A DNA stretch of 30,821 nt from an uncultured archaeon (GCA_964610875.1 CAZSWP010000043.1:1-30821); one strand, 5' to 3'; positions 340-27,863 are shown, counted from the stretch's first letter. Made by a program: numbers and translations. Notes: a model not told the origin generated them from the letters alone.

Positions 340-602
340 TGTCATTTCTACTTAGCAAATCAATAACCAGTACATCGATATCAATTCAAACTCTATATCA
401 GCAGGTCCCCGATTCCAGTGGGGTTCAATTACTCTAAGTGATTTGAACCAAAAAGCGCTCGCTGTTCTGAAACTCGTTTAGGTGATAGACATATCTCTGG
501 GTCAACATCTATGATATCACTGATTCTCTCTATTTGCATGGTCCACTAAAAGGCGATATCTTCAAAGGGATCCCTTATCCTTTTGGGTGACACGGGATTC
601 AT
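340..602 (-). pseudogene. Degraded remnant of a P-type cation ATPase N-terminus
   Basis: GAGGTGA RBS, then MNPVSPKRIRDPFEDIAF*WTMQIERISDIIDVDPEICLSPKRVSEQRALFGSNHLE*LNPTGIGDLLI*; resembles the Cation_ATPase_N GLS...R..FGxN motif; stops at 546-548, 429-431 and 393-395. Confidence 0.4.
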
Positions 603-1760: not shown

Positions 1761-2060
1761 CTACTTCGATTTAACCTTTTTTTTGGCAACTTTACGAATT
1801 GTTTGTATGACCTGAAGTATTTCCGGACTACTTATGCTGTATATCTTCCTGACACCATCCCTCTTTACTTTTAATATGCCTGCTCTGACAAGTTGTGTAA
1901 GATATGAGGACACTGTAGATTGAGCAAGACCAATTTCAGGGAAAACATCGCATTGGCATAGCTCACTTTCAAGTAATAAATCGATGATTCTTAGTCGTTC
2001 ATTATTACTAAGAGCTTTGTGAAAGTTGGTTATCCATTCAGTTTGGTTATTGCTCATCAT
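1761..2060 (-). CDS. arsR: ArsR/SmtB-family repressor with an alpha3 CxC site
   Basis: KALSNNERLRII..ELCQCDV..LAQSTVSSYL..L..AG; CQCD resembles the ArsR CVCD As(III) site. Confidence 0.85.
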   Translation of the reverse strand: MMSNNQTEWITNFHKALSNNERLRIIDLLLESELCQCDVFPEIGLAQSTVSSYLTQLVRAGILKVKRDGVRKIYSISSPEILQVIQTIRKVAKKKVKSK

Positions 2061-2239: not shown

Positions 2240-2641
2240 TTATTTGCTACTGACTCGTTTATACACCTTACCAGGTTTAATTGCCTCTGTCAACTCTGCA
2301 TATCCTCCATCAAGAATCCTCACAGACCTATAGCCTTCCTTCATCAAATAGACATAAGCAAGAGTAGACCTAAAATTGGATGAACAAAAAATTACAATGT
2401 TCTTATCTTCAGGAATCTCACTAATTCTCTGAGGAACTTCATTAACTGGGATATGCAGATATGCTATATTCTCAAAAATCTGCATTGGCATATTTAATAA
2501 GGCAAATTCCTCATTGGAACGAACATCTAAAAAGAGTACATCCTCAGTTCCAAACATATTCTCAGAATACAATTTGTGCTTGGATGTACCAAAGTATTCA
2601 AGCGTATGAAGTTTCAATATTTCTGCAAGTTCTTTTTTCAA
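2240..2641 (-). CDS. Single-domain rhodanese (sulfurtransferase)
   Basis: FLDVRSNEEF, active-site loop IFCSSNFRS, ILDGGY; start reassigned to TTG 2641 after an AAGGAGG RBS. Confidence 0.88.
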   Translation of the reverse strand: MKKELAEILKLHTLEYFGTSKHKLYSENMFGTEDVLFLDVRSNEEFALLNMPMQIFENIAYLHIPVNEVPQRISEIPEDKNIVIFCSSNFRSTLAYVYLMKEGYRSVRILDGGYAELTEAIKPGKVYKRVSSK

Positions 2642-2657
2642 TCGTTTTTCCTCCTTA

Positions 2658-3473
2658 CTAAGAAACAAAACCATAGGTGCTGATGAGGTTCAACAGTATC
2701 AACAGAGCGGCTAGCATATTACTTAGCGCAAATAGTTGCTTGAGGTTTTTTGGTCTTGATTTCAAAGCAAATCTACCTCCGAGAAATCCTCCTATCACTG
2801 CAAAAGTCATCAAAGGTAATCCTAAGAAGAGGTCGAAATGTCCCTGCAAAAAATGACCAAAGAAACCCATGAGTGCCGATACCGCAATCAACGGTGTGAC
2901 AATAGCTACACTAGATCTCATTGGTATATTGCATGCCACAACGAGCATTGGTACCAAGAATGAACCGCCTGATACACCAATCATTCCACTAAAGAAGCCT
3001 GTAAATAGTGAGATAGGCAAAACCAGCTTTAAATCGATTATAATTTCTCCATCAATTGAATCAATTCTCAATACTCCAAAATGGTTGTCCTCTAATTCTG
3101 CTTCTCGCTCAGAAAAAGGTACTATCATTATGATACCAGAAAGAACAAGCAGCCCGGCGAAAATCAACTTGAGTACAAACTCATCGAATAAATAGGAAAG
3201 AAAACCCCCTGTAAACGCTGAGACCGCAACCAGAACTCCTATGATAGATGCCAATTTCCAATTGATAGTTTTGTTTCGACCAAACACTATCATAGCCATA
3301 GATGCGGCAGCGAAGAGAATGAACTGCCCTATCGCAGCAGATTGGTGGATTGAAATTCCTGCAAAAATGAGTATCAAAACATAGAAATTTCCACCTCCTT
3401 TCCCAACCATCGTCATTGACACAGCTATTAAGAAGATCAAGAAATATAAAATAATATTCTCAATTGAAAACAT
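2658..3473 (-). CDS. TauE/SafE (TSUP) sulfite/sulfur-compound exporter
   Basis: About 8 TM helices, duplicated GxGGG motif (VGKGGGNF; IGVSGGSFLVP). Confidence 0.9.
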   Translation of the reverse strand: MFSIENIILYFLIFLIAVSMTMVGKGGGNFYVLILIFAGISIHQSAAIGQFILFAAASMAMIVFGRNKTINWKLASIIGVLVAVSAFTGGFLSYLFDEFVLKLIFAGLLVLSGIIMIVPFSEREAELEDNHFGVLRIDSIDGEIIIDLKLVLPISLFTGFFSGMIGVSGGSFLVPMLVVACNIPMRSSVAIVTPLIAVSALMGFFGHFLQGHFDLFLGLPLMTFAVIGGFLGGRFALKSRPKNLKQLFALSNMLAALLILLNLISTYGFVS

Positions 3474-3871: not shown

Positions 3872-4150
3872 TCATGATGCAATCTTAATACCTTGTTTCT
3901 CGATTTCCTTCAGGATAGCTCCTTCAATACTTGATTGTGTTGGATTGCTTCCGAGTGATCGTTCCCCGACGACAACACCTCGAAAACTGATATTGAATTG
4001 TTTGGCTAATTCACTTTCAGTTGAATACTCCTTGTAATCTATATATTCCCTATACTTCTTAACAGAACCATAGATACGCCCTAAAAAGGTGGTCTGACTG
4101 CAACCACATACTCCCACTGGCATGAACACTAAGAGTTGTACTTTCTCCAA
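3872..4150 (-). CDS. Small thioredoxin/ArsD-like protein with a GVCGC motif
   Basis: TTG start at 4150 after a GGAGGTG RBS; MEKVQLLVFMPVGVCGCS...; last gene of the operon. Confidence 0.7.
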   Translation of the reverse strand: MEKVQLLVFMPVGVCGCSQTTFLGRIYGSVKKYREYIDYKEYSTESELAKQFNISFRGVVVGERSLGSNPTQSSIEGAILKEIEKQGIKIAS

Positions 4151-4157
4151 TATATTT

Positions 4158-4565
4158 TCACCTCCATTCTTCTCTAAGTTTGTCAATTTGCTTTGCAATA
4201 TCCTTAGCAATTGTACTTACTATCTTTTTACTATCTTTAATTCTCCATCTCTCATCAGTCTTAACACATGACTCTTTCAGATAGTCTTCCACATTCATTT
4301 TTATAGAGGGTTCGCTGCTATACTTCGTTGTACCTTTTGCAGCGCAAAGCTTGCTACAACCATCAATTGTGATGGTAGGAAAGTTCTTTGCAAAATCACG
4401 CTCTCCTTGATCTCCTGCTAAGAATAGAGGGAGACATATTGTGACCGTATCATTTGGCTTGAGCTTATGTAGAACTTCAAGAGTTGCGGCACGAGAGATA
4501 TTCCCTCCATTACAAGCTTCACCACTACATGAAATCAAGCCAATTTTTGGTTTGAAAGTCATCAT
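4158..4565 (-). CDS. DGC-domain (putative zinc-binding) protein
   Basis: CSGEAC...TICL...IDGCSKLCA; ATGA overlap with the upstream gene. Confidence 0.88.
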   Translation of the reverse strand: MMTFKPKIGLISCSGEACNGGNISRAATLEVLHKLKPNDTVTICLPLFLAGDQGERDFAKNFPTITIDGCSKLCAAKGTTKYSSEPSIKMNVEDYLKESCVKTDERWRIKDSKKIVSTIAKDIAKQIDKLREEWR

Positions 4566-4954
4566 CTACCAGCTCCTGTACGATCTAAAATGAGATTCAT
4601 TATATCTCGTGCTAACAAGTGACCATTCTCGCCAATTTCTAGGATTGTTTCAGGTTTGTGTTCTTTGTTCTCAGCAAGAACTTTTGGGACAATTACCTCT
4701 AAAACAGGTTCGCCTCCTGCATATTTTACAAGCGCAGATGCACATTTTTTCGGACATCCGTCAATTGTGTAAACCTGCGATTCAGTCACAATTTGTTTTG
4801 ATTCTGCATCATCAGTCATCAATAATGGAAGACAGATTGTCACACACTCATCTGAGTATTCGCTGTCAGTTAAGAGATATGTTGCTTCTCTTGCTACAGT
4901 TCCAAATGCTTTCCCTATGCCACTACATGGAATAATTACCATCTTCATTTTCAT
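4562..4954 (-). CDS. DGC-domain (putative zinc-binding) protein
   Basis: IPCSG...TICL...IDGCPKKCA; ATGA overlap with the upstream gene. Confidence 0.88.
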   Translation of the reverse strand: MKMKMVIIPCSGIGKAFGTVAREATYLLTDSEYSDECVTICLPLLMTDDAESKQIVTESQVYTIDGCPKKCASALVKYAGGEPVLEVIVPKVLAENKEHKPETILEIGENGHLLARDIMNLILDRTGAGR

Positions 4955-5787
4955 TTCACCTTCTTTCCTATCTCTTCCTTTGCCTTTTCGATTGATTTTT
5001 CCAGATACTCAGATTCATCACTCAATAGTTCGAGTTCAGCAATATCATCCGGTTCAATTAGGTATATCCATCCTTTTTCATATGGGCTCTCATTGATGAA
5101 TTCAGGATTGTCTTCAAGTGATTTGTTGGATTCGATGATGGTTCCAGATACAGGTACTATTATTTCGATGAGGATTTTTGTTGACTCCATTGTACCAATA
5201 TCATCAAACATATCAACATGAGTACCCGGTTCGCCAAGCTCTACGAAGTACACGTCAGACATTATTTGTTGGAGGATATCAGAAACACCTACTCTTACAT
5301 ATTGGCCTTCTACTCGCACCCAGAAATCATTATCTGAATATTTGTGACCTTTGGCAACTCTAAGGGTAAACTTGTCAATCTTTTCTTCAATGTACTCAAT
5401 AGACTGCATTGATATCCCTAGATCTTGCTGTGATTCCTTTTCCATGGTTTCATCAAGAATTTGCGACAATGCGCCAACTACTTGTTTCACTTTCTTTTCA
5501 AAGTCCTCGTTTGAATTAGTAACTTCAGGTATGGGTACAATACTTGCCTTATCTTGTCCTTTTGAAGCAGCAAGTGCTGATGCACACTGTGTTCCACAAC
5601 CATCAAGACATATCACATCAGATGTTCTGAAGTCACTCATCTCGCCCGGTCGTTCTTTGTATAGAGCACCCATACTTCCTATGATGACATCATCACGAAT
5701 TCTTGCGAGTTCTTCTGCAGCAGCTCTTGACACGTTTCCACCTGGACGGTCATAACCTGCACAAGGTAAAACATATTTTTTTCTCAC
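4951..5787 (-). CDS. DGC domain fused to a glycine-cleavage H-like lipoyl carrier
   Basis: N-terminal LPCAG...LDGCGTQCA; C-terminal GcvH signatures WVRVEG..VRVGVSD, ESTK (Lys204), PVSG.I.E.N..L...PE.IN.SPY..GW; GTG start with GAGGTGA RBS. Confidence 0.88.
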   Translation of the reverse strand: MRKKYVLPCAGYDRPGGNVSRAAAEELARIRDDVIIGSMGALYKERPGEMSDFRTSDVICLDGCGTQCASALAASKGQDKASIVPIPEVTNSNEDFEKKVKQVVGALSQILDETMEKESQQDLGISMQSIEYIEEKIDKFTLRVAKGHKYSDNDFWVRVEGQYVRVGVSDILQQIMSDVYFVELGEPGTHVDMFDDIGTMESTKILIEIIVPVSGTIIESNKSLEDNPEFINESPYEKGWIYLIEPDDIAELELLSDESEYLEKSIEKAKEEIGKKVK

Positions 5788-5798
5788 TCTGAGTCACC

Positions 5799-6110
5799 TC
5801 ATTTCTTGGCTCGTTCTTCTTTGATGATCTTCAAGATGTCTGCTTTTGCAGGAAATGAGATTGCATCCTTTGGACACATTTTACTACATGCTGTACAAAA
5901 TACAACGCAATTGTATCGTTTCACAACTACAATTTTAGAAGTATCTTCTTGTGGTTCATATACCCTATGAGGACAGAACTTCAGACAATCATATTCTCCA
6001 TTACAACCATCACAGTTATCCACATCTATGAGCGGCCACCAGGGGATCTTCTCTCGATCCACGCCCATGAATGTGGTGCCAGGTCCCGACTCCTCATTCG
6101 ACATATCCAT
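5799..6110 (-). CDS. 2[4Fe-4S] ferredoxin-family protein
   Basis: CDGCNGEYDCLKFCP and CVVFCTACSKMCP motifs. Confidence 0.88.
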   Translation of the reverse strand: MDMSNEESGPGTTFMGVDREKIPWWPLIDVDNCDGCNGEYDCLKFCPHRVYEPQEDTSKIVVVKRYNCVVFCTACSKMCPKDAISFPAKADILKIIKEERAKK

Positions 6111-6465
6111 GTTTCTTTAGCTCCTCTGAAACCTTTTCCACAGCCTCATCGGTCGTTAGATCTCGTACATCAATCGGTACAAGATCCTTCTTCACATTTA
6201 GGCCCCTCTTCTCGAATGCATCACGAAAGAGCTTGTACTGCATTGCAGGAGCGCATCCACCAATGAACACTTTTTGTCCTGGTTGCAGTGTATCTTCAAG
6301 ATATGCATCTCCATCACTCTCACATAATTGAGGATGAATTATGCCATGTTTCACAGGAAGAATCATCCTCACTGTATTGATAAAATCCCAGATGTCCATC
6401 TTTTCAAAACCAGGACATTTACCAGTGCATACGCACATTATGAATGCAGGTTTGTCTGAAGTCAT
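6094..6465 (-). CDS. Stand-alone HdrA N-terminal-like (MvhD-fold) Cys-rich protein
   Basis: CVC...LC..DG...GGCAP....LFR...GLN.......R matches the HdrA N-domain pattern CHC...C..G...AACSP...FR...GLN...IRE; start ATG 6465 or TTG 6474. Confidence 0.7.
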   Translation of the reverse strand: MTSDKPAFIMCVCTGKCPGFEKMDIWDFINTVRMILPVKHGIIHPQLCESDGDAYLEDTLQPGQKVFIGGCAPAMQYKLFRDAFEKRGLNVKKDLVPIDVRDLTTDEAVEKVSEELKKHGYVE

Positions 6466-6486
6466 TAAACTCAATCCCTATACAAA

Positions 6487-6524
6487 ACATCGAACAATAT
6501 CGATATATCAATGTTTCTCTACAG
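6487..6524. promoter_or_regulatory. Tandem putative ArsR-type operators
   Basis: ACATCGAA-CAAT-ATCGATAT (6487-6506) and ATATCAAT-GTTT-CTCTACAG (6505-6524), variants of the acr3 operator. Confidence 0.6.
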
Positions 6525-7505
6525 TCATACTCGTCTTTGTTCTATTCGTGACAGCCATTTGTGAAAGCCAACTGCAGTGAGACTTTGTATGACGAATCCA
6601 ATTGCAATTGGAAATACGGTCAATGTCGCGAAAGAAGTGATTGCGACAGCCATAGCGATTGGGAGATTCTTCATCCCTGATGCATATGTCAATGCGATGC
6701 GAGTAGTTTTATTAAAGAAAGGACCAGTTATGAACCAAGCAAGGAAAAACAAGATGGGAAAGATGATTGCAGTTGAAACTAGAACGATTCCTGCTAATAA
6801 TGGGAACATAATAATGGTCGCAAATGAGCTGTTAATTGCCATGAACATAAGATACATTGCCATAATTCCTGATACTGCTGGAAAAACAGAGAGTTTCTCT
6901 TGCTTTTCCCTCTGAGTTCGAATCCTTAGAAGAATAGTTCTCTCTGCAATTGCTCTACAGAAAAGACCAAGCAGCAAGGGAATGAATAAAGTAAGTAGCA
7001 AATCAGTAAAGATCTGTTGGGTATTAATGATTACGACAGACCCAACTAACAGCCACATAAGCCATGGGATTAGAATGGGGGCTAGAAGCATTGTGCTTGC
7101 ATTGATAACAGCAGAAACAGAAATATCCCCGCTTAATAATCCTGTCCAAACTAAAGCCATTCCAGCACATGGTGTAACACCTATCAAAATCAACCCAATC
7201 ATAAGATCGGGTGAATCCTGTAGCAAGAGGTAAGCCACAGATAAGCAAATTAAGGGAGCAGTCACGAAATTAAGGGCTAACCCAAAGCCATTGCTTTTAA
7301 TATCCCTGAGTGCACCAATTAACTCTGGAGTTTGAATCATGAAGCTCATGGACCATATCATGAATCCAATGATTATAGGCGAAAAGCCCTTCATTGCAAC
7401 GCCAATTTGGGAAGTGAACAGACCAACGAAGAACCCCAGAACCATTGATAGGATAATTAGAAGAGAGTATTTTTCCTTGATTAACATTGCAGCTCGTATG
7501 AGCAT
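6525..7505 (-). CDS. Acr3-like / BASS-family secondary transporter
   Basis: About 10 TM helices; LNFVTAP, GVTPCAGMALVWT and GMKNLPIAMAVA motifs. Confidence 0.82.
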   Translation of the reverse strand: MLIRAAMLIKEKYSLLIILSMVLGFFVGLFTSQIGVAMKGFSPIIIGFMIWSMSFMIQTPELIGALRDIKSNGFGLALNFVTAPLICLSVAYLLLQDSPDLMIGLILIGVTPCAGMALVWTGLLSGDISVSAVINASTMLLAPILIPWLMWLLVGSVVIINTQQIFTDLLLTLFIPLLLGLFCRAIAERTILLRIRTQREKQEKLSVFPAVSGIMAMYLMFMAINSSFATIIMFPLLAGIVLVSTAIIFPILFFLAWFITGPFFNKTTRIALTYASGMKNLPIAMAVAITSFATLTVFPIAIGFVIQSLTAVGFHKWLSRIEQRRV

Positions 7506-7567: not shown

Positions 7568-7972
7568 TCAATCCATAGCATGGACAATCAATTCTGTAAC
7601 GTTTTCTAGTTCACCAGGGCTAATATACTCCATTATCGATTTTGGTTCATTATCTAGGTCTCTAGAGAAACTAATCTTTGCTATATCAGTATCACGAGTA
7701 ATGGTTATTGATGCTGTTGGCATATATCCAGCTTTTTCAACAAGTCGTTTTGCACATTCCTTAGGACATCCATCAACTGTGATAATCCGTTTAGCAGCCC
7801 GAGATTTCTCATGAGCCATCTCGTCACCACACGCAAGCGATGCTAGACACGAAATGCAAGCTTTTTTCAGACCAGCCTGTTTGACAGCTTCTAATGCAGC
7901 AAGCCCAGCAAGAAGCCCTGTATTTGATAAGCCTCCATAACAAGTGTAGATTAAGGATTCGTGAGTCATCAA
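7568..7972 (-). CDS. DGC-domain (putative zinc-binding) protein
   Basis: YTCYGGLSNTG...ISCL...VDGCPKECA. Confidence 0.88.
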   Translation of the reverse strand: MMTHESLIYTCYGGLSNTGLLAGLAALEAVKQAGLKKACISCLASLACGDEMAHEKSRAAKRIITVDGCPKECAKRLVEKAGYMPTASITITRDTDIAKISFSRDLDNEPKSIMEYISPGELENVTELIVHAMD

Positions 7973-8018
7973 TACTTCATCAACCTCAGAGTAGGACGTT
8001 TTATCTCTATATTTATAT

Positions 8019-8038
8019 ATATCGATGTTTCTATATAT
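8019..8038. promoter_or_regulatory. Putative ArsR-type operator next to a TATA box
   Basis: ATATCGAT-GTTT-CTATATAT; first 12 nt identical to the acr3 operator; minus-strand TATAAATA at ~8009-8016. Confidence 0.6.
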
Positions 8039-8175: not shown

Positions 8176-8700
8176 TCAATCAGCCTTGTATTTACTCAAA
8201 TCAATTGGGCACAACATTTTGAGTGGATTTGTTCTTGCATTACTATGTTTCCTCTTTTGCATTAATTTGCAGTCATCAACCTCCTTTGTTCCACTTAGAA
8301 GTCCAATTGCAAAAGCGAAACAGCCTGATTTACCACAATCAGATTTAGGTAAGAATTCACATAACTGCAGAGCATCGGCATCTTGTTTAATGAATAATAC
8401 ATCATCATCTGGAGGTCTATTGATTTTCAAGTAATCAAATGCCTGATATAATATCTCAGCAATGCTTTTCAAACAAATGATGGCTTCTTCCTTACTTGTT
8501 AGGAAGCTCATTGTGACCTTTCCACTTCCAAATATCGACGCAGTGTGCCCACACACTTTCGTGGTCACACAAGCCAACTCCTTTGAATAGTTTGCATTTC
8601 AGAAATGAAGGAATAGAAGCTCTAGTATTGGCGTGAGATCTGCATTGAACAATGCAATGACTCTTGATCTGCTATTATCTACTAGACATGGTCGGACTAA
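8176..8700 (-). pseudogene. Degraded (Fe-S)-binding protein (COG4871-like)
   Basis: Homology extends upstream of the ORF (RPCLVDNSRSRVIALFNADLTPILELLFLHF*NANYSKE) through an in-frame TGA at 8599-8601; cluster motif shortened (LPKSDCGKSGCFAFA); no clear start. Confidence 0.65.
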
Positions 8701-8796
8701 CAAATGAAGAAATAGATATAATGATATATTTATATAATTCGATATTATATGCATCCAACTTGAAATGCAATAGATTATGCAACGGGTGAAATCATC

Positions 8797-9033
8797 ATGA
8801 AAATCGAGATTCTGAGTAGGGGTTGCTCAAAGTGCGAAACACTTGAGATGATCGTTAGGGAAATAGTTGAAGAACGCGCATTGTCTGCAGAGATTGTCAA
8901 AGTGACCGATGTTAACAAAATGATCGATTATGGAGTCATGCTCACTCCCGGACTTATAGTTAATGGTGAAATCAAAGTCACTGGTCGTTTACCCTCAAGA
9001 ACCGAGATTGAGGAGATGTTAACTAGTAAATAA
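8797..9033 (+). CDS. MTH895-type small redox-active disulfide protein (thioredoxin family)
   Basis: MKIEIL..GCSKC...YGVMLTPGLIVNG...GRLP; GGTGA RBS. Confidence 0.92.
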   Translation: MKIEILSRGCSKCETLEMIVREIVEERALSAEIVKVTDVNKMIDYGVMLTPGLIVNGEIKVTGRLPSRTEIEEMLTSK

Positions 9034-9123: not shown

Positions 9124-9813
9124 TTATCCAAATGGAAATATCCCAAATAATGGTAGTATCAAGACAATACCAAGAGTCACAAGCAACACACCAACAAAAA
9201 TCTGTACCTTGTGTGCTGACGCAGCCAGAGAACCAGTCATTCGAGTTCGCATCTCCTCAGATAGTAATGCAATTGCAATGTATGGTATCGAAATACCTAG
9301 TGCCATTGCGGTGAATGTCAACACTAATACTACAATTTCCGTTTGAGTACTCATGTAGAGAAGAAAACCTATCACTGCGGTTCCAGAACAAGGTGCTGCA
9401 AGCAATGAATAGAAAAGTCCAATTGTATAGACACCAAAAAGACTCCTAGGTGCTTCGGGTTGGGATTTAAAATTGAGAGATGTCAAACGAAAGAAATGTT
9501 GTAATGACTCAGATGCAGTAACTAATCCAAAGAATATTATTATGAAACCTAAAATTGCTTGAATCGTAATTTGGTTTTGAATTAGAAATAGTCCAATAAA
9601 TACTGATATCAGAGTATAAACCACTAGTGATGAAAGAATGCCTAGAACAAGCACCCCAGTTATAGCTACAGCTTTCTTTTTATTATCAGTAGATTGAAGC
9701 GAACTAATCAAAAACATGGGGAGGAGTGGGAACAGACAAGGTGAGATTGCGGCGTATAAACCGAGTGTGAATCCAAAACCGATATTCAAGAAGATTTGAA
9801 TAATACTCTGCAT
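9124..9813 (-). CDS. ccdA: CcdA/DsbD-type transmembrane disulfide reductase
   Basis: Six TM helices with two PC motifs (SPCLFP, AAPCSG). Confidence 0.87.
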   Translation of the reverse strand: MQSIIQIFLNIGFGFTLGLYAAISPCLFPLLPMFLISSLQSTDNKKKAVAITGVLVLGILSSLVVYTLISVFIGLFLIQNQITIQAILGFIIIFFGLVTASESLQHFFRLTSLNFKSQPEAPRSLFGVYTIGLFYSLLAAPCSGTAVIGFLLYMSTQTEIVVLVLTFTAMALGISIPYIAIALLSEEMRTRMTGSLAASAHKVQIFVGVLLVTLGIVLILPLFGIFPFG

Positions 9814-9825: not shown

Positions 9826-10401
9826 TCATCTATCAAGAGTTGAAAGGGTTTCTGATATATCCTCGCTACTCCACACTCCAACATGAAGCCAACGAAAATA
9901 TCCGTCATCGTCTATGATTACCAAAGTTGGTACAGATCGAGCATTAAAATACGAACCAAACACTCCACCAGTATCTAATCCAACATACCATGAAATACTG
10001 TTATCCGATTTATAATTTTCAACTCTTTCTATTGTATCGCTTAAAACAAGACTCAAAGATATGATTTCCAAACGTCCTTCATAATCTTCGTATAGATTCT
10101 TTAGATGGGTTGTTTGTTGCTGACAGGGAATACATTCACCAGTTTGCATCAGATCAACAACAACAAAACTTCCTTGTAATGAGTGTAACTCCAAGACCTC
10201 TCCATCAGACATTAAAAGACCCCAATTAGGTGCAGCAAGTTCAAGCTCTAGGAGGTCAGTATCTTCAGTAATACTGCTTGTTGAATTGTCAGAAGTGTTG
10301 GATGAGCCAGGATCATATGTTAGAAATATTGCCGCGATGCCGACCCCGAGGATAATTAAAACACAAAAAAGTCCGGACATCAATTGCTGCCATGATTCCA
10401 T
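9826..10401 (-). CDS. Membrane-anchored TlpA/ResA-like thiol-disulfide oxidoreductase
   Basis: N-terminal TM helix, Ser/Thr linker, CIPC, cis-Pro motif SVPTLVIID. Confidence 0.85.
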   Translation of the reverse strand: MESWQQLMSGLFCVLIILGVGIAAIFLTYDPGSSNTSDNSTSSITEDTDLLELELAAPNWGLLMSDGEVLELHSLQGSFVVVDLMQTGECIPCQQQTTHLKNLYEDYEGRLEIISLSLVLSDTIERVENYKSDNSISWYVGLDTGGVFGSYFNARSVPTLVIIDDDGYFRWLHVGVWSSEDISETLSTLDR

Positions 10402-10525: not shown

Positions 10526-11578
10526 TTAGGATAGACTAGGAGAATCGGACTCCCTCCAAAATCCTCTGATGTTGAGTTTCTTAGACAAATACACAAGCCC
10601 CAACATAACAGGTACTTCCCAGAAGAGTCCCATAGTAGTACCTAAGGCGGCAATCGAACCAACACCGTAGATAGCAATGGCGGTCGCGATTGCAATTTCA
10701 AAGTGACTGGAGGACCCAATTAGTACCGTAATCACACCCTCAGGATATGCAAGACCAGCAACCCGGGTGATGATTAGATTATATCCAACAACGATAGCAA
10801 ATCCGATTAAGAGAGGAATCGAAACAAGTAAGAGAAGATCTGGATTTTCAAGCATTACACCACCATTTAAAGAGAAGAGAACAATAAGAGTACTCAATAG
10901 AGCTATCAGTGCTATTTTTCCAACGAATGGACGATAACGGTTCTCAAACCACTCAACCCCCTTAGATTTCATCAAGTACTTTTTACTGACTATACCTATA
11001 ATGAGAGGCAGTCCGATGAATAAAAGGACTGAAACGAAAAGAAGCCATCGATCAAGGGGTATTGCGGATATCCCACTAAGGAGTGCTACAATTGGAGCAT
11101 ACAAGAACATGATAGTGGCAGTGTTAAGACTAGTATTTACGACATTTTGTTCCTGATTACCTTTAGCCAAATAGCCCCACACTAATACCATGGCTGTACA
11201 TGGACTTGAAGACAGAAGAATGATGGCGACAATGAGTTGTGGATTTCCTCCTAGAAAGATGTTTGCCAATGCAAATCCAACAATGGGAGCAATGATCCAA
11301 TTCGAGAATAATGTGAGAATGATGGGTTTGGGAGCGTTCCTAAGCTTCTGAAGTTCGGACATTTGGATGTTTAACATAGCAGGATACATCATGAAGAAAA
11401 GAAATATTCCAATCGGAATTGAAATTCCTCCCCACTGCAAGGAAGCAATTGCTTCGCTTACTCCGGGAAGGATTTGAGAGAGAATGATGCCAACTATCAT
11501 ACATACTGCTACCCATAATGGGAGATACTTTTCGAACATACTAAGATGCTTCTTTTCCTCTTTTTGGACTTCCTGCAT
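10526..11578 (-). CDS. acr3: Acr3 arsenite efflux transporter
   Basis: FEKYLPLWV, MMYPAM, NWIIAP, SPCTAMVLVW, SSHFEIAIA and WEVPVML motifs. Confidence 0.93.
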   Translation of the reverse strand: MQEVQKEEKKHLSMFEKYLPLWVAVCMIVGIILSQILPGVSEAIASLQWGGISIPIGIFLFFMMYPAMLNIQMSELQKLRNAPKPIILTLFSNWIIAPIVGFALANIFLGGNPQLIVAIILLSSSPCTAMVLVWGYLAKGNQEQNVVNTSLNTATIMFLYAPIVALLSGISAIPLDRWLLFVSVLLFIGLPLIIGIVSKKYLMKSKGVEWFENRYRPFVGKIALIALLSTLIVLFSLNGGVMLENPDLLLLVSIPLLIGFAIVVGYNLIITRVAGLAYPEGVITVLIGSSSHFEIAIATAIAIYGVGSIAALGTTMGLFWEVPVMLGLVYLSKKLNIRGFWRESDSPSLS

Positions 11579-11606: not shown

Positions 11607-11628
11607 AATATCGATGTTTATCGATATT
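11607..11628. promoter_or_regulatory. Perfect 9-4-9 inverted repeat, putative ArsR operator of acr3
   Basis: AATATCGAT-GTTT-ATCGATATT abutting a minus-strand TATAAATA (11626-11633); extra half-site ATCGATAT at 11636-11643. Confidence 0.75.
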
Positions 11629-11647
11629 TATATTTATCGATATATTC

Positions 11648-12396: not shown

Positions 12397-13002
12397 ATGA
12401 ATATGCAAACACAAGTTGACAATAAACCGTACATCATCTATCTAATCATACTATTACTATACTTGATTCCCGGATTGAACGTTCTCTTATTGGGAGAATC
12501 AGATATCTATCTCAATATTATTCGTTTCTCTGCGTTGACTGGACTTGTTTCTCTGTTCATTTCAACAATATTATCCAACTATCTTAGAGAAGTTCGCAAG
12601 ATTTTCGGAAAGCCGTTCCTAAGAGTACATCATTGGTTTGCTGCACTTGGTCTTATCCTTATCACAATTCATCCTGTTGTGTTTGCTATATATACAGCAA
12701 GTGTATTGGTCTTCATTCCCGATTTCTCATCTTGGTATGCATTCTGGAGTCTTGCTGGAAGACCTGCATTATATCTAGCATATGTCGCAACTCTGGCGGG
12801 AATCCTGAGAAATAGGACACAGAAATACTGGAGATATATCCATGGAATTATGTATGTAGTATTAGGCTTTGCATTTGTTCATGGACTACTGATAGGTACA
12901 AATTTCGCCAATATGTTCATTGCAATCTTTTTCGCAATATTATTGTTAGTTTCATATTCACTAGCAGTCTTGAAACGTATTCGTGCATATAGATCCTCAT
13001 AG
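12397..13002 (+). CDS. Ferric-reductase-like (MsrQ-type) heme b membrane protein
   Basis: Six TM helices, His pattern VHHW..IHP...YIHG..VHG, WRYIH motif. Confidence 0.8.
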   Translation: MNMQTQVDNKPYIIYLIILLLYLIPGLNVLLLGESDIYLNIIRFSALTGLVSLFISTILSNYLREVRKIFGKPFLRVHHWFAALGLILITIHPVVFAIYTASVLVFIPDFSSWYAFWSLAGRPALYLAYVATLAGILRNRTQKYWRYIHGIMYVVLGFAFVHGLLIGTNFANMFIAIFFAILLLVSYSLAVLKRIRAYRSS

Positions 13003-13052
13003 ATGGATGGCTACATCAATTCATACCAGATTTCCATTATTGACACGAACAT

Positions 13053-15905
13053 CTATTCATCTATTTCGTCTTCTTCACAGATCTCTTCTTTATCATGACC
13101 TAGCAGTTTGTAGACTGGTGCTAGAAGTCCCACAAGACAGAGGACTAATATCAAAACCCATAGCTCCAAACCCAGTGCCATAGTACCGAAGGCTATTGAG
13201 AGTGGAGTGTAAAGCACCAGTAAAGTTAGGACGAATGAGAATAATACTGCGATGATAAGCGCCTTAGATTTTCTAATACATGTTCGCCAAACTGGGTGGA
13301 ACTCATCTCGGCAATTCCAGACCCATAAGAGCTGGAAAAGGACCATGGTAGTAAAAGTTGCAGTCTGTGCCATTTTCAGTACGTCTGAATACTGAGTCAA
13401 TTCCCAATCTACAGTAGGACCAGTTATTCCTGGGATGAAACCAATATTTGACCATAGTACAAAGAAGTATACGAAACTTGCTGCAAAGGTGGCAAGAATT
13501 CCCCCTATGAATATCATCCGAATCATGCCTTTGTCTAACATACGACTACCTGGCTTTCTCGGACATCTTGCCATGATATCCTCTGGAGGTGGGTCAAATC
13601 CAAGTGCAAGTGCAGGAGGGCCGTCAGTGACCAGATTGATCCACAGTATCATTACAGGTGTCAGTGGAATGGGTAAACCTATCATCGCCATCAGGAAGAC
13701 AAGTAGTACCTCTCCGGTATTTGCTGAAAGAAGGAATCTGACAAATTTTCGAATATTGGCATATATCTCTCTACCAACTTCTATTGCAGATACTATCGTG
13801 GCAAAGTTGTCATCCGTAAGAATTAGGTCTGATGATTCCTTTGTGACTCCTGCTCCTCGAATACCCATTGCAATCCCCACATCAGCAGTCTTTATTGCAG
13901 GTGCATCATTGACCCCATCACCTGTCATCGCCACAACTTGATTTTGACGTCGTAAAGATCGCACGATTCGCAATTTATGCTCGGGGGCTACTCGCGCAAA
14001 CACATCTCGCTCTCGAACCACTTTGTCTAACTCTTCATCAGTCATATCAGCTAGTTCTGCACCTGTGATTGCTGTGCTATCGGAATGCGTCAGGCCAACA
14101 CTCTTAGCAATTGAAGTTGCTGTGAGTGCATGATCTCCAGTTATCATAATAGGGCGGATTCCAGACTGTCGGGATTTCTTAATGGCATCTCTTACACCAT
14201 CTCTAGGTGGGTCTATCATGCCTACCAGCCCAATGAAGACGAGATTGTTTTCAACTTCTTCCTCATCCCATTCTCCTGAGTGGTCTTTGAGTTTTTTGTA
14301 AGCTAAAGCCAGTACTCTCATTGCACAACCTGCCATAGCTGCATTTGCCTCTAGAATTTCTTTTCTCATTTCGGGGTCCAATTGTTTTTCAGTTTGTTCA
14401 ACAAGAATCTTAGCAGACCTTTCCAGTATAATCTCAGGTGCACCTTTTGAGAAGGTCCAAAGCTGTCCCTCATTATCGCGATAGATGGAAGACATCCGTT
14501 TTCTCTTGGAATCGAATGAAAACTCTGTTATCTCTTCATAGTGTGATCGTGTATCATTGTAGCTGATTCCAGCTTTTTCAGCGGTGACGAGTAACGCACC
14601 TTCAGTGGGGTCACCCATGACTTTCCAGACGGATTCATTCTCAGGATTCTCAGATAATAAGGCATTTGAGCAGAGTTGTCCAGTCTTTAGTAACATCTCA
14701 AGTTCATTACTTTCCTTTACATCAAATGGATCGTTTATCTGGAACAAAGCCACGCAGCTTGCTGGTCGAGGTGCATTATGGAATTCACCTTTTTTGCGAT
14801 ATCCTGTTCCTGAAACAGTGATCTTAGCAGATGGAAGATACATATAACGCACAGTCATCTCGTTCCTCGTAATCGTACCCGTTTTATCAGAACAGATGAC
14901 GGTGGTGGATCCCAGGGTTTCAACGCTAGGTAATTTCCGTACTATCGCATTCCTCTGCACCATTCTACTTACACCAAGAGCAAGAGTCACAGTGACAACC
15001 GCTGGGAGACCTTCTGGTATTGCGGCCACCGCCACTGCTATTGAAACAAAAAGTGCTTCAGTCCAATCATACGATGTGTTAACAAAGACAAGCGAGATAA
15101 AGACAATAATTGATAGAACGAGGACAATACCTCCCAACTTTCTACCTAAATCTTGAAGGTCTACTTGCAATGGAGTCATATCATCATCGCTTTCTTGAAC
15201 CATTTGAGCAATCTTTCCAAATTCAGTTTTCATTCCTGTAGCTGTGACTACTGCAGTGCCTTTACCCTGCGTCACGACTGACCCTTGAAAGACGAGATTC
15301 ACCATATCGCCTACTACTGGTTTTTCAGTCGTTATTTTCTTGACACTTTTCTGAACTGCCATCGATTCTCCTGTTAGTGGAGCTTCATCCGTCGCTAGAC
15401 CAACTGCGTTCAGCAACCGTGCATCAGCTGGTACAATGTCGCCAGTTTCAATAGTGATGATATCTCCGGGGACAAGATCTCGTGCTTCAATCTCTTGTAA
15501 GTTGCCGCCACGCTTGACAATCGCCATCGGAGCTGAAAGATCTTTTAGTGCATCCAATGCTTTTTCTGACCTATATTCCTGCACAAATCCAAATAGAGCA
15601 TTGATTATTACAATCGCAGATATGACTATAGCATCAATGAAACCCTCTTCTTCATGACTACCATGAAGCACTACCGTCAGTATTGAAATGACAATAGCGA
15701 CTAACAGAATGAATACCATAGGATTCATGAATTGCTCCAGAAGCATTCTAAGTGGTCCTATACGTTCCACTTCTTCTATCTCGTTTGGGCCATATTCAGA
15801 CAGTCTCTGCTTAGCTTCTTCACTAGTCAACCCATCTTTTGAAGTGTTGAGTAATTCTAAGGTGTCATCAGGTGTTTCTCTGAACCATTCGTGCAGTTGA
15901 CTCAT
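13053..15905 (-). CDS. P2A-type cation (Ca2+)-transporting P-type ATPase
   Basis: TGES, PEGL, DKTGT, KGAPE, TGDH, TGDGVNDAP and WINLVTDG motifs; likely start ATG 15905 (ORF track starts at 15950). Confidence 0.93.
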   Translation of the reverse strand: MSQLHEWFRETPDDTLELLNTSKDGLTSEEAKQRLSEYGPNEIEEVERIGPLRMLLEQFMNPMVFILLVAIVISILTVVLHGSHEEEGFIDAIVISAIVIINALFGFVQEYRSEKALDALKDLSAPMAIVKRGGNLQEIEARDLVPGDIITIETGDIVPADARLLNAVGLATDEAPLTGESMAVQKSVKKITTEKPVVGDMVNLVFQGSVVTQGKGTAVVTATGMKTEFGKIAQMVQESDDDMTPLQVDLQDLGRKLGGIVLVLSIIVFISLVFVNTSYDWTEALFVSIAVAVAAIPEGLPAVVTVTLALGVSRMVQRNAIVRKLPSVETLGSTTVICSDKTGTITRNEMTVRYMYLPSAKITVSGTGYRKKGEFHNAPRPASCVALFQINDPFDVKESNELEMLLKTGQLCSNALLSENPENESVWKVMGDPTEGALLVTAEKAGISYNDTRSHYEEITEFSFDSKRKRMSSIYRDNEGQLWTFSKGAPEIILERSAKILVEQTEKQLDPEMRKEILEANAAMAGCAMRVLALAYKKLKDHSGEWDEEEVENNLVFIGLVGMIDPPRDGVRDAIKKSRQSGIRPIMITGDHALTATSIAKSVGLTHSDSTAITGAELADMTDEELDKVVRERDVFARVAPEHKLRIVRSLRRQNQVVAMTGDGVNDAPAIKTADVGIAMGIRGAGVTKESSDLILTDDNFATIVSAIEVGREIYANIRKFVRFLLSANTGEVLLVFLMAMIGLPIPLTPVMILWINLVTDGPPALALGFDPPPEDIMARCPRKPGSRMLDKGMIRMIFIGGILATFAASFVYFFVLWSNIGFIPGITGPTVDWELTQYSDVLKMAQTATFTTMVLFQLLWVWNCRDEFHPVWRTCIRKSKALIIAVLFSFVLTLLVLYTPLSIAFGTMALGLELWVLILVLCLVGLLAPVYKLLGHDKEEICEEDEIDE

Positions 15906-16158
15906 TCTCTCAGTACACCAAATCCTGTAATATGGTGCACAAATTCCCACGTTTATTATTGCTTCGATAGATACAGAAACAATATCTTTGATGCTCTATA
16001 ACCGATACAACGATTTCGATAACAGTAAAAACGAGTACTTCAAAGAACGGAAAAACTTTGAAAGCCATATAGAGTCATTTCAATAGATTACTACAATAGA
16101 TCTGATGAATAGGAGATTCAACGGATATTGGGTTCAAATGCAATGACATATTAGATAA

Positions 16159-16264: not shown

Positions 16265-16717
16265 ATGGTGAGCAGAAAAGTGAAGACACAGAAAGCTAAA
16301 TTGTGGTTGGTAGTAGGACTTGCTGGCGTATTCGGCGCTATAAGCCGATGGAGTATCTATTTACTGCTAGAATCGTTAATGATGTCAAGCTCTGTTGTCA
16401 CTTTTATGATAAACATCTCTGGTTGTCTTGTGTTGGGCCTCGTACTTGGTTCTTGGTCGCAAAAGATAGATCATTTGAACCATATTGCATCAGGTTTTCT
16501 AGGGTCTTATACAACGTTCTCCACTGTTATGGTTGATTCATTTGTTCTATGGTCCAGTTCAAATCTCCTAGCCCCAGTTTTTTTATTTTTCAGTCAAACA
16601 CTCCTAGGATACATTGCTTTCAAGCTAGGTAAGAGCTTTGTAAGTTCAATCAATATGAAGATCAATGGCAACCTACAAGAGAATACATCACCCAGGAGTA
16701 AAGAACACATTGTTTGA
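16265..16717 (+). CDS. crcB: Fluc/CrcB fluoride channel subunit 1
   Basis: GVFGAISRW, INISGC, GFLGSYTTFST. Confidence 0.9.
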   Translation: MVSRKVKTQKAKLWLVVGLAGVFGAISRWSIYLLLESLMMSSSVVTFMINISGCLVLGLVLGSWSQKIDHLNHIASGFLGSYTTFSTVMVDSFVLWSSSNLLAPVFLFFSQTLLGYIAFKLGKSFVSSINMKINGNLQENTSPRSKEHIV

Positions 16718-17078
16718 TATATTCTTCATAGCTTTGGGGGCTTTTTTAGGAGCTATCATTCGGGTTGGAATTTCGCATCTGTCTGAGCGGTTTACATACA
16801 AAGGACTTCCCATCGCAACACTCACTGTGAATGTTGGTGGTTCTTTCCTTCTTGGTATTGTTATTACAATTTTAATCACTCCAACTGCTGTGTACCTATT
16901 TCTCGTCATTGGTTTTCTCTCATCCCTGACAACTTTCTCTACATTTGTGATGGAGTTAGATACTCTGTGGAATTCTAATAAGAAATATGCATTACAATAT
17001 GCTGTGCTATCATTGAGTCTCGGATTTCTTCTCCTACTCATTGGTCTTAATATGGGCCAATTACTGTCAGGAGCATAA
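16710..17078 (+). CDS. crcB: Fluc/CrcB fluoride channel subunit 2
   Basis: GAFLGAIIR, TLTVNVGGSF, GFLSSLTTFSTFVME; TTG start at 16710 after AGGAG, overlapping crcB1. Confidence 0.9.
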   Translation: MFDIFFIALGAFLGAIIRVGISHLSERFTYKGLPIATLTVNVGGSFLLGIVITILITPTAVYLFLVIGFLSSLTTFSTFVMELDTLWNSNKKYALQYAVLSLSLGFLLLLIGLNMGQLLSGA

Positions 17079-26057: not shown

Positions 26058-26795
26058 CTACTTCAAACTGCGTTTAAATATCAACTCGCACATTGCGAAT
26101 AGGAATAATAGGTATGTCGCTAAGGCTATGATGTTGACTACTGGAGCTAGGCTAGTCAGCGATTGAGATGTGGCAAGTCTGAAAGCGTTTACCGAATAGG
26201 TTGGAGGTAAGAGGTATGCAATGAACTGAAGTATCATTGGCATCTCATCAACTGGGAGAAAGATTCCGCATAGAAATACCATGGGAAATCTAAAGAAATT
26301 CGACAGAGTCTGAGCCTCAAAGACCTCCTTAACAGACACCGCCACAAGAGCACCTAGCGCAGACATTGATAATAGTGTCAAGACAAGAGCGCCTACAAAG
26401 AAAAGAAGGTCAGTGATTTGCATTCCAAAGAACACTACAGCAAGAATCACCATCAGGAATGATATTACTCCACCAAAGACCGCACCGCCAAATATCTTAC
26501 CCGCTAGTAATGCTCTTATCGATATCGGAGCCAGAAGAAGTCTTTCCAAAGAACCCTGACGCTTCTCAAAGGTTATAACTATTGCTTCCATGCTTGTTGT
26601 TCCAAATATGGCAGCCATTACTACAAGACCTGGTGCCAGTTCTTGGAGTCCTGTCGGGTCTCTAAGGATGAATGCCAATGCAAGAACAAGAGGGAAAAGA
26701 ATACCCCAACTTATGTTAGGAGCCTTGAAATAGTATGCTTTTAGGTCTTTCAGTAGAATGTAGTAAATACCACTTATCTCATTTTTCAGATTCAT
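26058..26795 (-). CDS. ABC-2 type exporter permease
   Basis: Six TM helices, EKRQGSLERLLLAP, FLCGIFLP; ATGA overlap with the ATPase gene. Confidence 0.9.
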   Translation of the reverse strand: MNLKNEISGIYYILLKDLKAYYFKAPNISWGILFPLVLALAFILRDPTGLQELAPGLVVMAAIFGTTSMEAIVITFEKRQGSLERLLLAPISIRALLAGKIFGGAVFGGVISFLMVILAVVFFGMQITDLLFFVGALVLTLLSMSALGALVAVSVKEVFEAQTLSNFFRFPMVFLCGIFLPVDEMPMILQFIAYLLPPTYSVNAFRLATSQSLTSLAPVVNIIALATYLLFLFAMCELIFKRSLK

Positions 26796-27751
26796 TTCTG
26801 AGCTGCCCCCTTCTCTGCTTGCATTCTTTCAGTCGATAGGCCTGTCAACCTAACAAACGCTTCCTCCAATGTGGGTCGTCCTGTTTCAAGTGATTCCACA
26901 GAAACTCCTTCTCGAGATGTAATGTTCACTAACCCTCTTAGAGAATCACTTATGTTTTGAACCACTAAACGGATGAAAGGACCTTCACACTCGAGAAGAC
27001 CAAGTGAGCTGAGTTGACTAAGTAGCGCGTTATCTGGTACTTTTGAGAGTTCTGCCCGGACTACTGACTGCATTTGGGATTGTTTCTTGATCTCTTCAGG
27101 TGTATCGGTGATAATGATCTTCCCCTGTACAAGTATGGCGATTCGATCACAGAGACGATCCGCTTCCTCAATATAGTGGGTCGTCAAGAAAACTGTGGTA
27201 TTCTCAGCACGAATCCGCTCTATGTATTCTCGCAGGGTGTTTGCACTTACTACATCAAGCCCAACAGTAGGTTCGTCTAAGAAGAGAATCTCTGGACTAT
27301 GAACTAGTGATGCAGCTATGACTGCTCGTCGCTTTAAACCCCTTGAGAGTTTGCCAAACTTAGTCGTTTTCCTATCTAGTATATCAAAAGACTGAAGGAC
27401 CTCTGTAATCCGGTCCTTACGTTCATGTACCGGTACATGATACAGCCGAGATATGAACACCAAGTTATCCCAAACAGTGAGTTCATCGTATAGATTCGAA
27501 ACCTCGGGTACCACACCTACACGACTCTTCACTTCAACGAGGTCTTCCGTGACACTGTATCCTGCTACCATTGCTGTGCCGCTGTTTGGAATCGAGAGAC
27601 CTACAAGCATTCTGATCGTGCTAGTCTTTCCAGCCCCATTCGGTCCAAGAAATCCAAAGACCTCTCCCGTATTGACTTCGAAGGATATATTGTCGACAGC
27701 TAAAAAATCATCATAGTACTTCGTAAGATTGTTTATTGCAATGGCTGACAT
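26792..27751 (-). CDS. ABC exporter ATP-binding protein (DrrA-like)
   Basis: GPNGAGKT, LSRG, LFLDEPT, TTH; start reassigned to ATG 27751. Confidence 0.92.
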   Translation of the reverse strand: MSAIAINNLTKYYDDFLAVDNISFEVNTGEVFGFLGPNGAGKTSTIRMLVGLSIPNSGTAMVAGYSVTEDLVEVKSRVGVVPEVSNLYDELTVWDNLVFISRLYHVPVHERKDRITEVLQSFDILDRKTTKFGKLSRGLKRRAVIAASLVHSPEILFLDEPTVGLDVVSANTLREYIERIRAENTTVFLTTHYIEEADRLCDRIAILVQGKIIITDTPEEIKKQSQMQSVVRAELSKVPDNALLSQLSSLGLLECEGPFIRLVVQNISDSLRGLVNITSREGVSVESLETGRPTLEEAFVRLTGLSTERMQAEKGAAQK

Positions 27752-27863
27752 TGTTTTATCACACAATCGCGAATTCCTTATTATGGTTTCCAAATGATTA
27801 CTAGCATTGGCTGTGATGCTTTGCCAAGGATTTGAAACGCATGATAAAATCAATCCAATTGAC

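Follow-up and report, generated by a model that had tools for sequence, protein, structure and literature searches.

A conserved operon encoding a putative dedicated lipoyl carrier in a thorarchaeal arsenic-resistance island

Arsenic resistance has been studied for decades, yet a set of genes that recurs in the arsenic-resistance (ars) islands of hundreds of uncultured anaerobes is without a described role. One instance of this set, consisting of six small cysteine-rich genes (g1 to g6), is located on a 30,821-nt contig (CAZSWP010000043.1; this whole contig is referred to below as the window) of a 3.75-Mb Thorarchaeota (Asgard) genome that was obtained from a microbial-mat metagenome assembly (GCA_964610875.1). 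The locus raises the question of what a GcvH-type lipoyl carrier, two presumed iron-sulfur proteins and several proteins of the DGC family (PF08859) contribute beside genes for arsenite efflux. The answer proposed here, to which a probability of roughly 0.5 is assigned, is that the six genes represent an ArsR-controlled accessory operon of the ars island, built on a private lipoyl carrier, the lipoyl arm of which would serve as an As(III) relay. The stretch was matched in two DNA sequencing runs, both derived from one microbial-mat study, and no RNA run was listed among the matches.

The six genes are co-oriented on the minus strand (3872-6474), tightly packed and translationally coupled (Table 1). 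Genes g1 and g2 overlap by 17 nt (ATGGATATGTCGAATGA), the start codon of g3 is situated 11 nt past the g2 stop and is preceded by GGTGA, and the g3/g4 and g4/g5 junctions each represent an ATGA overlap. The g6 gene starts with TTG at position 4150, 7 nt past the g5 stop and with GGAGG ahead of it, in agreement with its homologues. A longer listed open reading frame (ORF) for g6 (3872-4210) was rejected, as it would overlap g5 and as the homologues support the TTG start. The arrangement of six overlapping or closely spaced genes put forward in the original prediction, made from the DNA sequence by itself, was upheld for all ORFs and junctions when the sequence was read. Because the gene order is conserved across many genomes, the set does not represent a chance arrangement and, judged from sequence, the six genes are one conserved operon.

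The same prediction had assigned the operon its own operator, and a palindrome was indeed located ahead of g1, which is common to the acr3 and DGC/Acr3-like promoters and is conserved in relatives. The perfect form of this palindrome, ATATCGA-TGTTTA-TCGATAT, precedes acr3 at 11608-11627. When up to three mismatches were allowed, the 20-mer was found six times in the window, compared with 0.38 expected occurrences, and all matches were located in promoter gaps. In about a dozen related Thorarchaeota loci the palindrome and an overlapping GATATAT are present 40-60 nt upstream of g1, representing a phylogenetic footprint. As the operator is common to the acr3 and g1 promoters, the operon is placed in the same regulon as the arsenite pump. 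Two additional exact ATATCGAT half-sites were observed near the left end of the window (374-381 and 626-633), upstream of small ORFs.

The candidate repressor is the ArsR protein of the window, which contains the CxC box that is typical of As(III)/Sb(III)-sensing ArsR proteins; ArsR orthologues encoded directly after g5/g6 in related loci all retain CQC(D/E). We infer that the window ArsR acts on the ATATCGA-N6-TCGATAT operator. Only two matches to the acr3 model TIGR00832 were identified in the 3.75-Mb genome, both of them within the window, and only that at 10526-11578 exceeds the cut-off. In many related loci, furthermore, the gene immediately preceding g1 encodes an Acr3 homologue. The CxC-box ArsR, the Acr3 protein scoring over its cut-off and the shared operator jointly assign the locus, as far as sequence features can indicate, to an ars regulon.

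The g1-g5 order was found to be repeated in seven further genomes of the family, and the DGC-GcvH fusion encoded by g3 is represented by about 100 protein clusters, nearly all from Thorarchaeota or Sifarchaeia. The same five genes are present in a Eubacteriaceae bacterium, flanked by a radical-SAM/SPASM gene, a split ArsP gene, ArsC (LMWPc) and ArsR, and a second bacterial metagenome-assembled genome (L102) exhibits the order ArsR-Thioredoxin_3-g1-ferredoxin-fusion-DGC-DGC, while some Bathyarchaeia possess the unfused order g1-ferredoxin-DGC-DGC-DGC-GcvH. The original prediction had staked its proposal on a gene order conserved elsewhere and on linkage of homologous operons to ars genes. Both were observed: the g1-g5 order is kept in other genomes, and homologous operons adjoin genes for ArsR, Acr3, ArsC, ArsM or ArsP in archaea as well as in bacteria.

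A scan with a g5 profile, covering one genome per species, identified at least 549 loci in many anaerobic phyla, of which the best 80 were used for a census of neighbouring genes, with a subset of 47 long loci of 12 kb or more. GcvH was the most frequent neighbour (71 of the 80 loci), followed by OsmC-like proteins (59), ArsR (53), Acr3 (48), Thioredoxin_3 (35), ArsC-type proteins (20), g1 (19), PF04060 proteins (13) and ArsM-like proteins (7). Among the 47 long loci, 83% contained ArsR, 72% Acr3 and 81% some structural ars gene. The commonest form elsewhere is GcvH-DGC-DGC-OsmC, which in Bathyarchaeia occurs directly after arsM-like and acr3 genes and opposite arsR-arsC, and hosts of the cassette include Asgard archaea, Bathyarchaeia, Chloroflexota, Actinomycetota, Acidobacteriota and Deltaproteobacteria. 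By gene content, the Thorarchaeota operon can be classified as a ferredoxin-fed variant of this widespread GcvH-DGC-DGC(-OsmC) cassette of ars islands, from which it differs in that a third DGC domain is fused to GcvH, g1 and the ferredoxin are present, and OsmC is absent. Strict mutual exclusivity of OsmC and the g1/ferredoxin pair was considered and dismissed, as two of the 80 loci contain both.

A radical-SAM (SPASM) gene was observed beside the module in seven of the 80 loci, in addition to the Eubacteriaceae locus (examples are L023, 6190-7206, and L027, 9732-11267; also L044, L074, L078, L081, L097 and L118). The L023 locus also contains, in divergent orientation, genes for a PF04060 Fe-S protein and a cysteine-desulfurase-like protein.

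Central to the operon is g3, in which a DGC domain (E 3.7e-9, 37 bits) is fused to a GCV_H domain (residues 149-264; E 3.1e-32, 111.5 bits against a cut-off of 22.2), whereby the profile places the protein in PF01597; two other H-protein models remained under their cut-offs (PRK01202, 114.1 bits against 117; TIGR00527, 101.8 bits against 115.85). Residue K204 of the MESTK motif, previously put forward as the lipoyl lysine, is invariant among 23 fusion homologues, consistent with that assignment, as are the three cysteines of the DGC domain (C9, C64 and C68), which lacks the second cysteine of the four-cysteine DGC pattern. The lipoyl lysine is likewise retained in 96 of the 97 GcvH domains from module loci.

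This carrier appears to be separate from glycine cleavage. The housekeeping gcvT-gcvH genes occupy contig 32 of the same genome, gcvP is found on contig 15, and family searches of the annotated window ORFs returned no match to gcvP/T/L, lipoate ligase or HdrBC, as had been stated at the outset; with gcvT, gcvP and the L protein not found in the window, g3 does not classify as a component of a glycine cleavage system. A quickly built maximum-likelihood tree separated the DGC-linked GcvH domains from housekeeping GcvH (Shimodaira-Hasegawa-like approximate likelihood ratio test, SH-aLRT, 97), with one sequence pre-labelled as housekeeping grouping with the DGC-linked set. The GcvH domain of g3 is, by this phylogenetic placement, a specialised paralogue in a clade separate from housekeeping GcvH. 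Four lipoate ligase homologues are encoded on contigs other than the window, and ligase genes are located 1-3 kb from the module in several related loci.

The first two genes of the operon encode the presumed electron-input pair. No Pfam family matched g1, and the NCBIfam HdrA model produced a weak match (E 2e-4, 19.1 bits against a cut-off of 1400). When the AlphaFold2 model of g1 (predicted local distance difference test, pLDDT, 83) was compared with solved structures using Foldseek, the top seven matches were all HdrA chains (E 1.2e-4 to 1.2e-2, probability 0.99-1.0), among them 7bkb_A (E 1.2e-4, TMq 0.68), and the g1 sequence aligns with residues 10-94 of this solved HdrA, with the same CxC...C...C pattern. 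The label 'HdrA-N-like' given to g1 from sequence inspection is thereby vindicated, and g1 is predicted to adopt the fold of the HdrA N-terminal domain. Five cysteines are invariant (C14, C16, C20, C51 and C74), and g1 is presumed to be a [4Fe-4S] protein with four cluster-ligand cysteines and one extra cysteine, C20.

Compared with methanogen HdrA, the g1 model superposes on the N-terminal domain, exhibits the same cysteine pattern and has a 2x[4Fe-4S] ferredoxin as its fixed partner. Unlike HdrA (about 650 aa), however, g1 is free-standing, ending at a stop after 126 aa, carries the extra invariant C20 and is devoid of the FAD-binding thioredoxin-reductase-like core and ferredoxin domains. 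By analogy, an extra cysteine beside the presumed cluster would be what a ferredoxin:disulfide reductase needs; a likeness to ferredoxin:thioredoxin reductase is a matter of functional speculation. The g1 family is rare: a search of 1.84 billion proteins yielded 126 representatives, almost all of which are stand-alone proteins of 110-135 aa.

The g2 protein was identified as a ferredoxin by its matches to Fer4_9 and Fer4_7 (29.1 and 27.3 bits, respectively, with a cut-off of 27 each) and by its eight cysteines, arranged as CX2CX5CX3CP and CX3CX2CX3CP; its best NCBIfam models, which scored below their cut-offs, are HgcB-type ferredoxins. In the loci examined, g1 and the ferredoxin were always paired, with the ferredoxin second, even in an unrelated context. 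In two metagenome contigs (L036 and L037), a diverged g1 homologue and a ferredoxin are encoded without DGC or GcvH, and the genes next in order specify a cupin and an ABC transporter ATPase, so that the g1-ferredoxin pair represents a portable two-gene unit. As no Lpd above the family cut-off was identified in this genome, g2 and g1 are the only candidates for reducing the lipoyl arm in the Thorarchaeota form, and the pair is therefore read as a ferredoxin-dependent input. There is good support for the arsenic link and also for this presumed electron-input end, which comprises the HdrA-N-like protein and the ferredoxin.

In the proposed mechanism, electrons from reduced ferredoxin would pass via the two [4Fe-4S] clusters of g2 to g1. 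Acting as an HdrA-N-terminal-type domain with four cluster-ligand cysteines and the extra invariant cysteine, g1 would reduce the lipoyl disulfide of g3 in a manner resembling a ferredoxin:disulfide reductase, either directly or via the cysteine sites of the DGC proteins. The resulting dihydrolipoyl swinging arm would be the working dithiol, which under arsenite stress may bind As(III) and exchange it with the three- and four-cysteine DGC sites and with g6; these in turn would pass As(III) to the adjacent Acr3-type exporters. The arm might also feed reducing equivalents to pentavalent arsenicals or oxidised thiols. As envisaged in the original prediction, the six proteins may assemble into a single soluble complex, whose lipoyl arm might handle As(III) or sulfane sulfur and might thereby supply Acr3 or protect other lipoylated enzymes of the cell. 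The chemistry of the lipoyl arm could thus consist of As(III) capture, reduction of arsenicals or a relay of thiol-reducing power.

As(III) binds dihydrolipoyl dithiols tightly, lipoic acid being the classic target of arsenite, and ArsD, ArsR and ArsA bind As(III) via three cysteines. An As(III)-bound dithiol is favoured as a functional intermediate because induction of the operon would coincide with that of the arsenite pump, and because an ordinary dithiol relay would be blocked by As(III). A more general proposition, which is held tentatively and considered possible rather than probable, is that anaerobes use lipoic acid as a working part of arsenic detoxification, with an arm, driven by ferredoxin or Lpd, that would take up As(III) or reduce arsenicals of the pentavalent or organic kind and hand the arsenic via DGC cysteine sites to Acr3 or ArsP.

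The frequent OsmC-like neighbour introduces a rival explanation, namely that lipoyl-GcvH carries electrons, supplied by ferredoxin in this operon and by Lpd in other cassettes, to partner proteins that act like peroxidases or as disulfide reductases. These partners, OsmC in other phyla and DGC and g6 in the present case, would repair oxidised or arsenic-damaged thiols, and the system as a whole would merely be co-induced with the ars genes. OsmC is a lipoyl-dependent peroxidase, and known lipoyl relays include bacterial Ohr/OsmC proteins reduced by lipoylated proteins and the Lpd-DlaT-AhpD-AhpC system of Mycobacterium tuberculosis. In the census, the OsmC-like gene follows two DGC genes in the 59 loci in which it occurs. 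In five loci (L063, L083, L098, L107 and L108), GcvH-DGC-DGC-OsmC is in addition followed by a gene for an Lpd-like flavoprotein of about 465 aa, and in all of these except L063 a lipoate ligase homologue is encoded about 1 kb beyond it. These five cassettes look like self-contained lipoyl redox units and, given the Lpd-like and lipoate ligase genes after OsmC, the lipoyl arm is expected to be enzymatically redox-cycled. The Thioredoxin_3, CcdA and TlpA-like genes of the island also accord with thiol-redox defence, as does published work in which a Hyphomicrobium GcvH-like protein beside OsmC was interpreted as the electron donor of OsmC, and in which H protein, L protein and OsmC of Trichomonas were reported to be used against peroxides (10.64898/2026.10.01.755906).

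Compared with such peroxidase relays (Trichomonas L/H/OsmC, Ohr/OsmC and Lpd-DlaT-AhpD-AhpC), the module shares a lipoyl dithiol carrier, here of the GcvH type, that operates outside glycine cleavage and, in the wider cassette, an OsmC-like gene and sometimes Lpd and lipoate ligase. Conversely, no OsmC or Lpd is encoded in the window, so that the operon itself does not group with lipoyl-dependent OsmC/Ohr peroxidase systems, although both proteins occur in related cassettes elsewhere; the six OsmC genes of the genome are all located outside the window, the supply would come from a ferredoxin and an HdrA-N-like protein, the context is arsenic instead of peroxide, and those relays contain nothing equivalent to the DGC proteins. 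The OsmC-like protein of the cassettes is moreover atypical (L052-L118; e.g. L032, 8497-8847), with an invariant cysteine in NTCxMMMF, a second cysteine about 21 residues further on, and KYSLVANS in place of the usual second (C-terminal) cysteine motif. As the hosts are anaerobic, and as the presumed inducing condition, As(III), would itself block a dithiol relay, thiol-redox defence is regarded as rather unlikely to be the principal role.

The proposed As(III) relay further depends on the DGC proteins, which scored 55.9 bits (g4), 63.6 bits (g5) and 67.4 bits (a fourth DGC protein in the window) against a PF08859 cut-off of 27, confirming their membership of this family. All four DGC domains of the genome are encoded within the window; Methanosarcina acetivorans, used as a control in this search, also possesses a DGC gene. 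The g4 and g5 proteins are distinct DGC paralogues with four invariant cysteines each (C10, C41, C67 and C71 in g4; C13, C44, C70 and C74 in g5, along with an invariant Arg25). The AlphaFold2 model of g5 (pLDDT 85) exhibits a flavodoxin-like three-layer fold, in which the cysteines lie where strands 1-3 end or immediately beyond, and where the next helix begins. As they cluster at the strand ends, the four cysteines should, according to this model, form one shared metal, cluster or metalloid site. NCBI names the DGC proteins 'putative zinc-binding'.

Structural comparison of the DGC model using Foldseek returned nothing at E <= 0.001, and its weak best rows include low-molecular-weight (LMW) phosphatases and ArsC (E 0.02-0.07, TM about 0.45). 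In an exhaustive structural search, the best match was an uncharacterised Wolinella protein (3pu6, Z 9.0), with generic flavodoxin-like folds otherwise and no function readable from them; sequence searches against solved structures produced nothing significant for g5, g6 or the DGC profile. A remote homology between DGC and g1 was also considered and rejected (hhalign probability 0.5%, not significant).

The LMW phosphatase and ArsC rows relate to another rival explanation, in which the DGC proteins are cysteine-cascade enzymes with a flavodoxin/LMW-phosphatase-like fold that reduce arsenate, methylarsenate or thioarsenate, with dihydrolipoyl-GcvH as the reductant, replacing or adding to thioredoxin-coupled ArsC. 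The window encodes ArsR and Acr3 and, among the families searched, none of ArsD, ArsA or ArsC; the genome contains a single LMWPc gene, which is located on another contig, and no ArsC-type gene is within reach in 60 of the 80 loci. The first DGC cysteine lies in a loop rich in Gly, after which comes an invariant Arg, and ArsP, a methylarsenite permease, occurs in bacterial and Desulfovibrio-type contexts. Conversely, these fold matches do not reach significance, generic flavodoxin-like folds are placed above them by the exhaustive aligner, the DGC proteins lack a CX5R loop, and an ArsC-type gene is present beside the cassette in 20 of the 80 loci. A lipoyl-dependent reductase of this kind is therefore considered improbable.

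The g6 protein, homologues of which follow g5 in most Thorarchaeota loci, matched no Pfam family even at E 10 and no PDB sequence. An identity as the ArsD metallochaperone (PF06953) was not supported, as no profile match was obtained; only a GVCG-like motif of g6 resembles the ArsD N-terminus. Language-model features of g6 are nearest to Thioredoxin_3 clusters (score 0.90), and the g6 motif is CxC, not the CxxC of Thioredoxin_3/ArsE (PF13192). A thioredoxin-like fold is possible and may be taken as a lead only.

A rhodanese gene and a TauE/SafE exporter gene just downstream of the operon, on the same strand, bear on a further rival explanation, namely that the module relays sulfur or persulfide in the manner of LbpA/sHdr, or answers to some other thiophilic metal, for example Sb, Cd or Zn, with persulfide or a metal other than arsenic as the signal detected by the ArsR-type regulator. 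LbpA proteins belong to the GcvH-like carriers, and a function in sHdr is known for HdrA-like proteins. The module resembles the sHdr-LbpA system in that a GcvH-like lipoyl carrier is associated with Hdr-related Fe-S proteins and that lipoate ligases are located nearby in some loci; cysteine-desulfurase-like genes are present beside some cassettes, and the zinc-binding annotation of DGC would suit a response to metals. However, none of the sHdr families (HdrB/HdrC CCG domain, DsrE and TusA) was found among the window ORFs or the recurring neighbours, and g1 does not contain the FAD domain of the HdrA core. Recurring neighbours are Acr3, ArsC, ArsM and ArsP rather than sulfur-oxidation genes, with TauE present in nine and rhodanese in two of the 80 loci. 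In addition, the ArsR CxC box is of the As(III)/Sb(III) sensor type, and antimony would use the same sensor and pump. Because the module lacks HdrBC, DsrE and TusA genes, the sulfur relay is the least supported reading, and this explanation as a whole is deemed very unlikely.

Several observations weigh against the As(III) relay proposed here. As(III) binding, lipoylation of g3 and contacts between the proteins are properties that we infer. The fold of the DGC model is generic, of the flavodoxin-like type, and no solved structure resembles it significantly; the NCBI name of the DGC proteins refers to putative zinc binding. ArsR/SmtB regulators also sense other metals and persulfides, and ArsR neighbours by themselves are for this reason no proof of a role in arsenic handling. 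The presence of an OsmC-like protein in the cassette of most phyla points to redox defence over As(III) trafficking, and the downstream rhodanese and TauE genes fit sulfur chemistry. Comparison of g6 with its Thioredoxin_3 neighbours using hhalign was not significant (probability 0.9%), leaving a thioredoxin- or ArsD-like nature of g6 without profile support. Lastly, for some of the Thorarchaeota operons, no structural ars gene is located within a distance of 9 kb.

As regards known arsenic systems, the locus resembles canonical ars operons in its CxC-box ArsR, its Acr3 over the cut-off, the shared operator and the small cysteine-rich proteins encoded beside the pump. It differs from ArsD-ArsA, ArsC-thioredoxin and ArsE/Thioredoxin_3-ArsP systems in its accessory set, in which a lipoyl carrier is combined with two Fe-S proteins and three or four DGC domains. 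To our knowledge, none of these three components has a described role in arsenic resistance. A literature search, with subscription journals outside its coverage, found no description of the module, in accordance with the earlier statement that this combination had not been functionally described; the sole trace was a DGC gene 'of unknown function' in the ArsR-ArsP-ArsE operon of Pseudodesulfovibrio mercurii, where the Thioredoxin_3 family is named ArsE.

The module is real and conserved, apparently undescribed, and there is a substantial chance that it embodies a previously unrecognised principle of arsenic handling. If the lipoyl arm handles arsenic, this would constitute a new detoxification principle, and a function would become available for the DGC family (as a new arsenic-handling family), for the free-standing HdrA-N-terminal domain (g1 being a new minimal ferredoxin:disulfide reductase) and for 'orphan' GcvH paralogues, with a possible bearing on arsenic speciation in anoxic sediments, paddy soils and mats. 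A stand-alone HdrA-N domain with a fixed ferredoxin partner would, furthermore, be an easier experimental object for investigating the role of the HdrA N-terminal domain.

Table 1. Genes and operator-like sites of the operon and the surrounding ars island, with positions counted from the first nucleotide of the window
Feature	Position	Strand	Description
ArsR	1761-2060	-	HTH_5 E 7.5e-10; ELCQCD (CxC) box; candidate repressor
Rhodanese	2240-2674	-	Between operon and arsR; candidate regulon member only
TauE/SafE anion exporter	2658-3473	-	Between operon and arsR; candidate regulon member only
g6	3872-4150	-	92 aa; invariant GVCxCS motif
g5	4158-4565	-	DGC protein, SCSGExC type
g4	4562-4954	-	DGC protein, PCSGIGK type
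g3	4951-5787	-	DGC-GcvH fusion, 278 aa
g2	5799-6110	-	2x[4Fe-4S] ferredoxin, 103 aa, 8 Cys
g1	6094-6474	-	HdrA-N-terminal-domain-like, 126 aa; likelier ATG start at 6465
Operator ATATCGA-TATTGT-TCGATgT	6487-6506		Within the 50 nt that separate g1 from the Acr3-like gene; overlaps TATA-like GATATAT
Acr3-like transporter, SBF family	6525-7505	-	SBF E 1.7e-21; acr3 model 66.9 bits, below cut-off; P-C-x-x-M motif kept as in true Acr3
Fourth DGC protein	7568-7972	-	DGC E 1.4e-18; paired with the Acr3-like transporter
Two overlapping operator-like sites	8009-8038		Upstream of the DGC/Acr3-like pair
PF04060 'putative Fe-S cluster' protein	8176-8577	-	Recurrent module neighbour (13/80 loci)
Weak operator-like site	8726-8745		Before the Thioredoxin_3 gene
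Thioredoxin_3 protein (ArsE type)	8797-9033	+	E 2.9e-26; family in 35/80 loci
CcdA/DsbD-type membrane thiol transporter	9124-9813	-	Downstream of acr3
TlpA-like thioredoxin-fold protein	9826-10401	-	Downstream of acr3
Bona fide ACR3 arsenite efflux transporter	10526-11578	-	TIGR00832 291.7 bits, cut-off 282.8
Perfect operator AATATCGAT-GTTT-ATCGATATT and second overlapping copy	11608-11643		Between acr3 and a divergent winged-helix gene

Beyond the ars genes, the rest of the window looks like a detoxification/efflux island. Encoded in the regions 12397-15950 and 26058-30656 are two ABC-2 exporter pairs, accompanied by an HxlR regulator in one case and a PadR regulator in the other, as well as a P-type cation ATPase of 965 aa and a membrane protein resembling ferric reductases. 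A 2723-aa giant protein (17399-25570, minus strand), probably a surface protein, consists of many right-handed beta-helix/NosD repeats with C-terminal PKD/E-set-like domains. A fluoride riboswitch (RF01734; 16180-16243, plus strand; 54.1 bits, E 1.5e-12) was identified directly upstream of two overlapping CrcB fluoride-channel genes (16265-16717 and 16665-17078).

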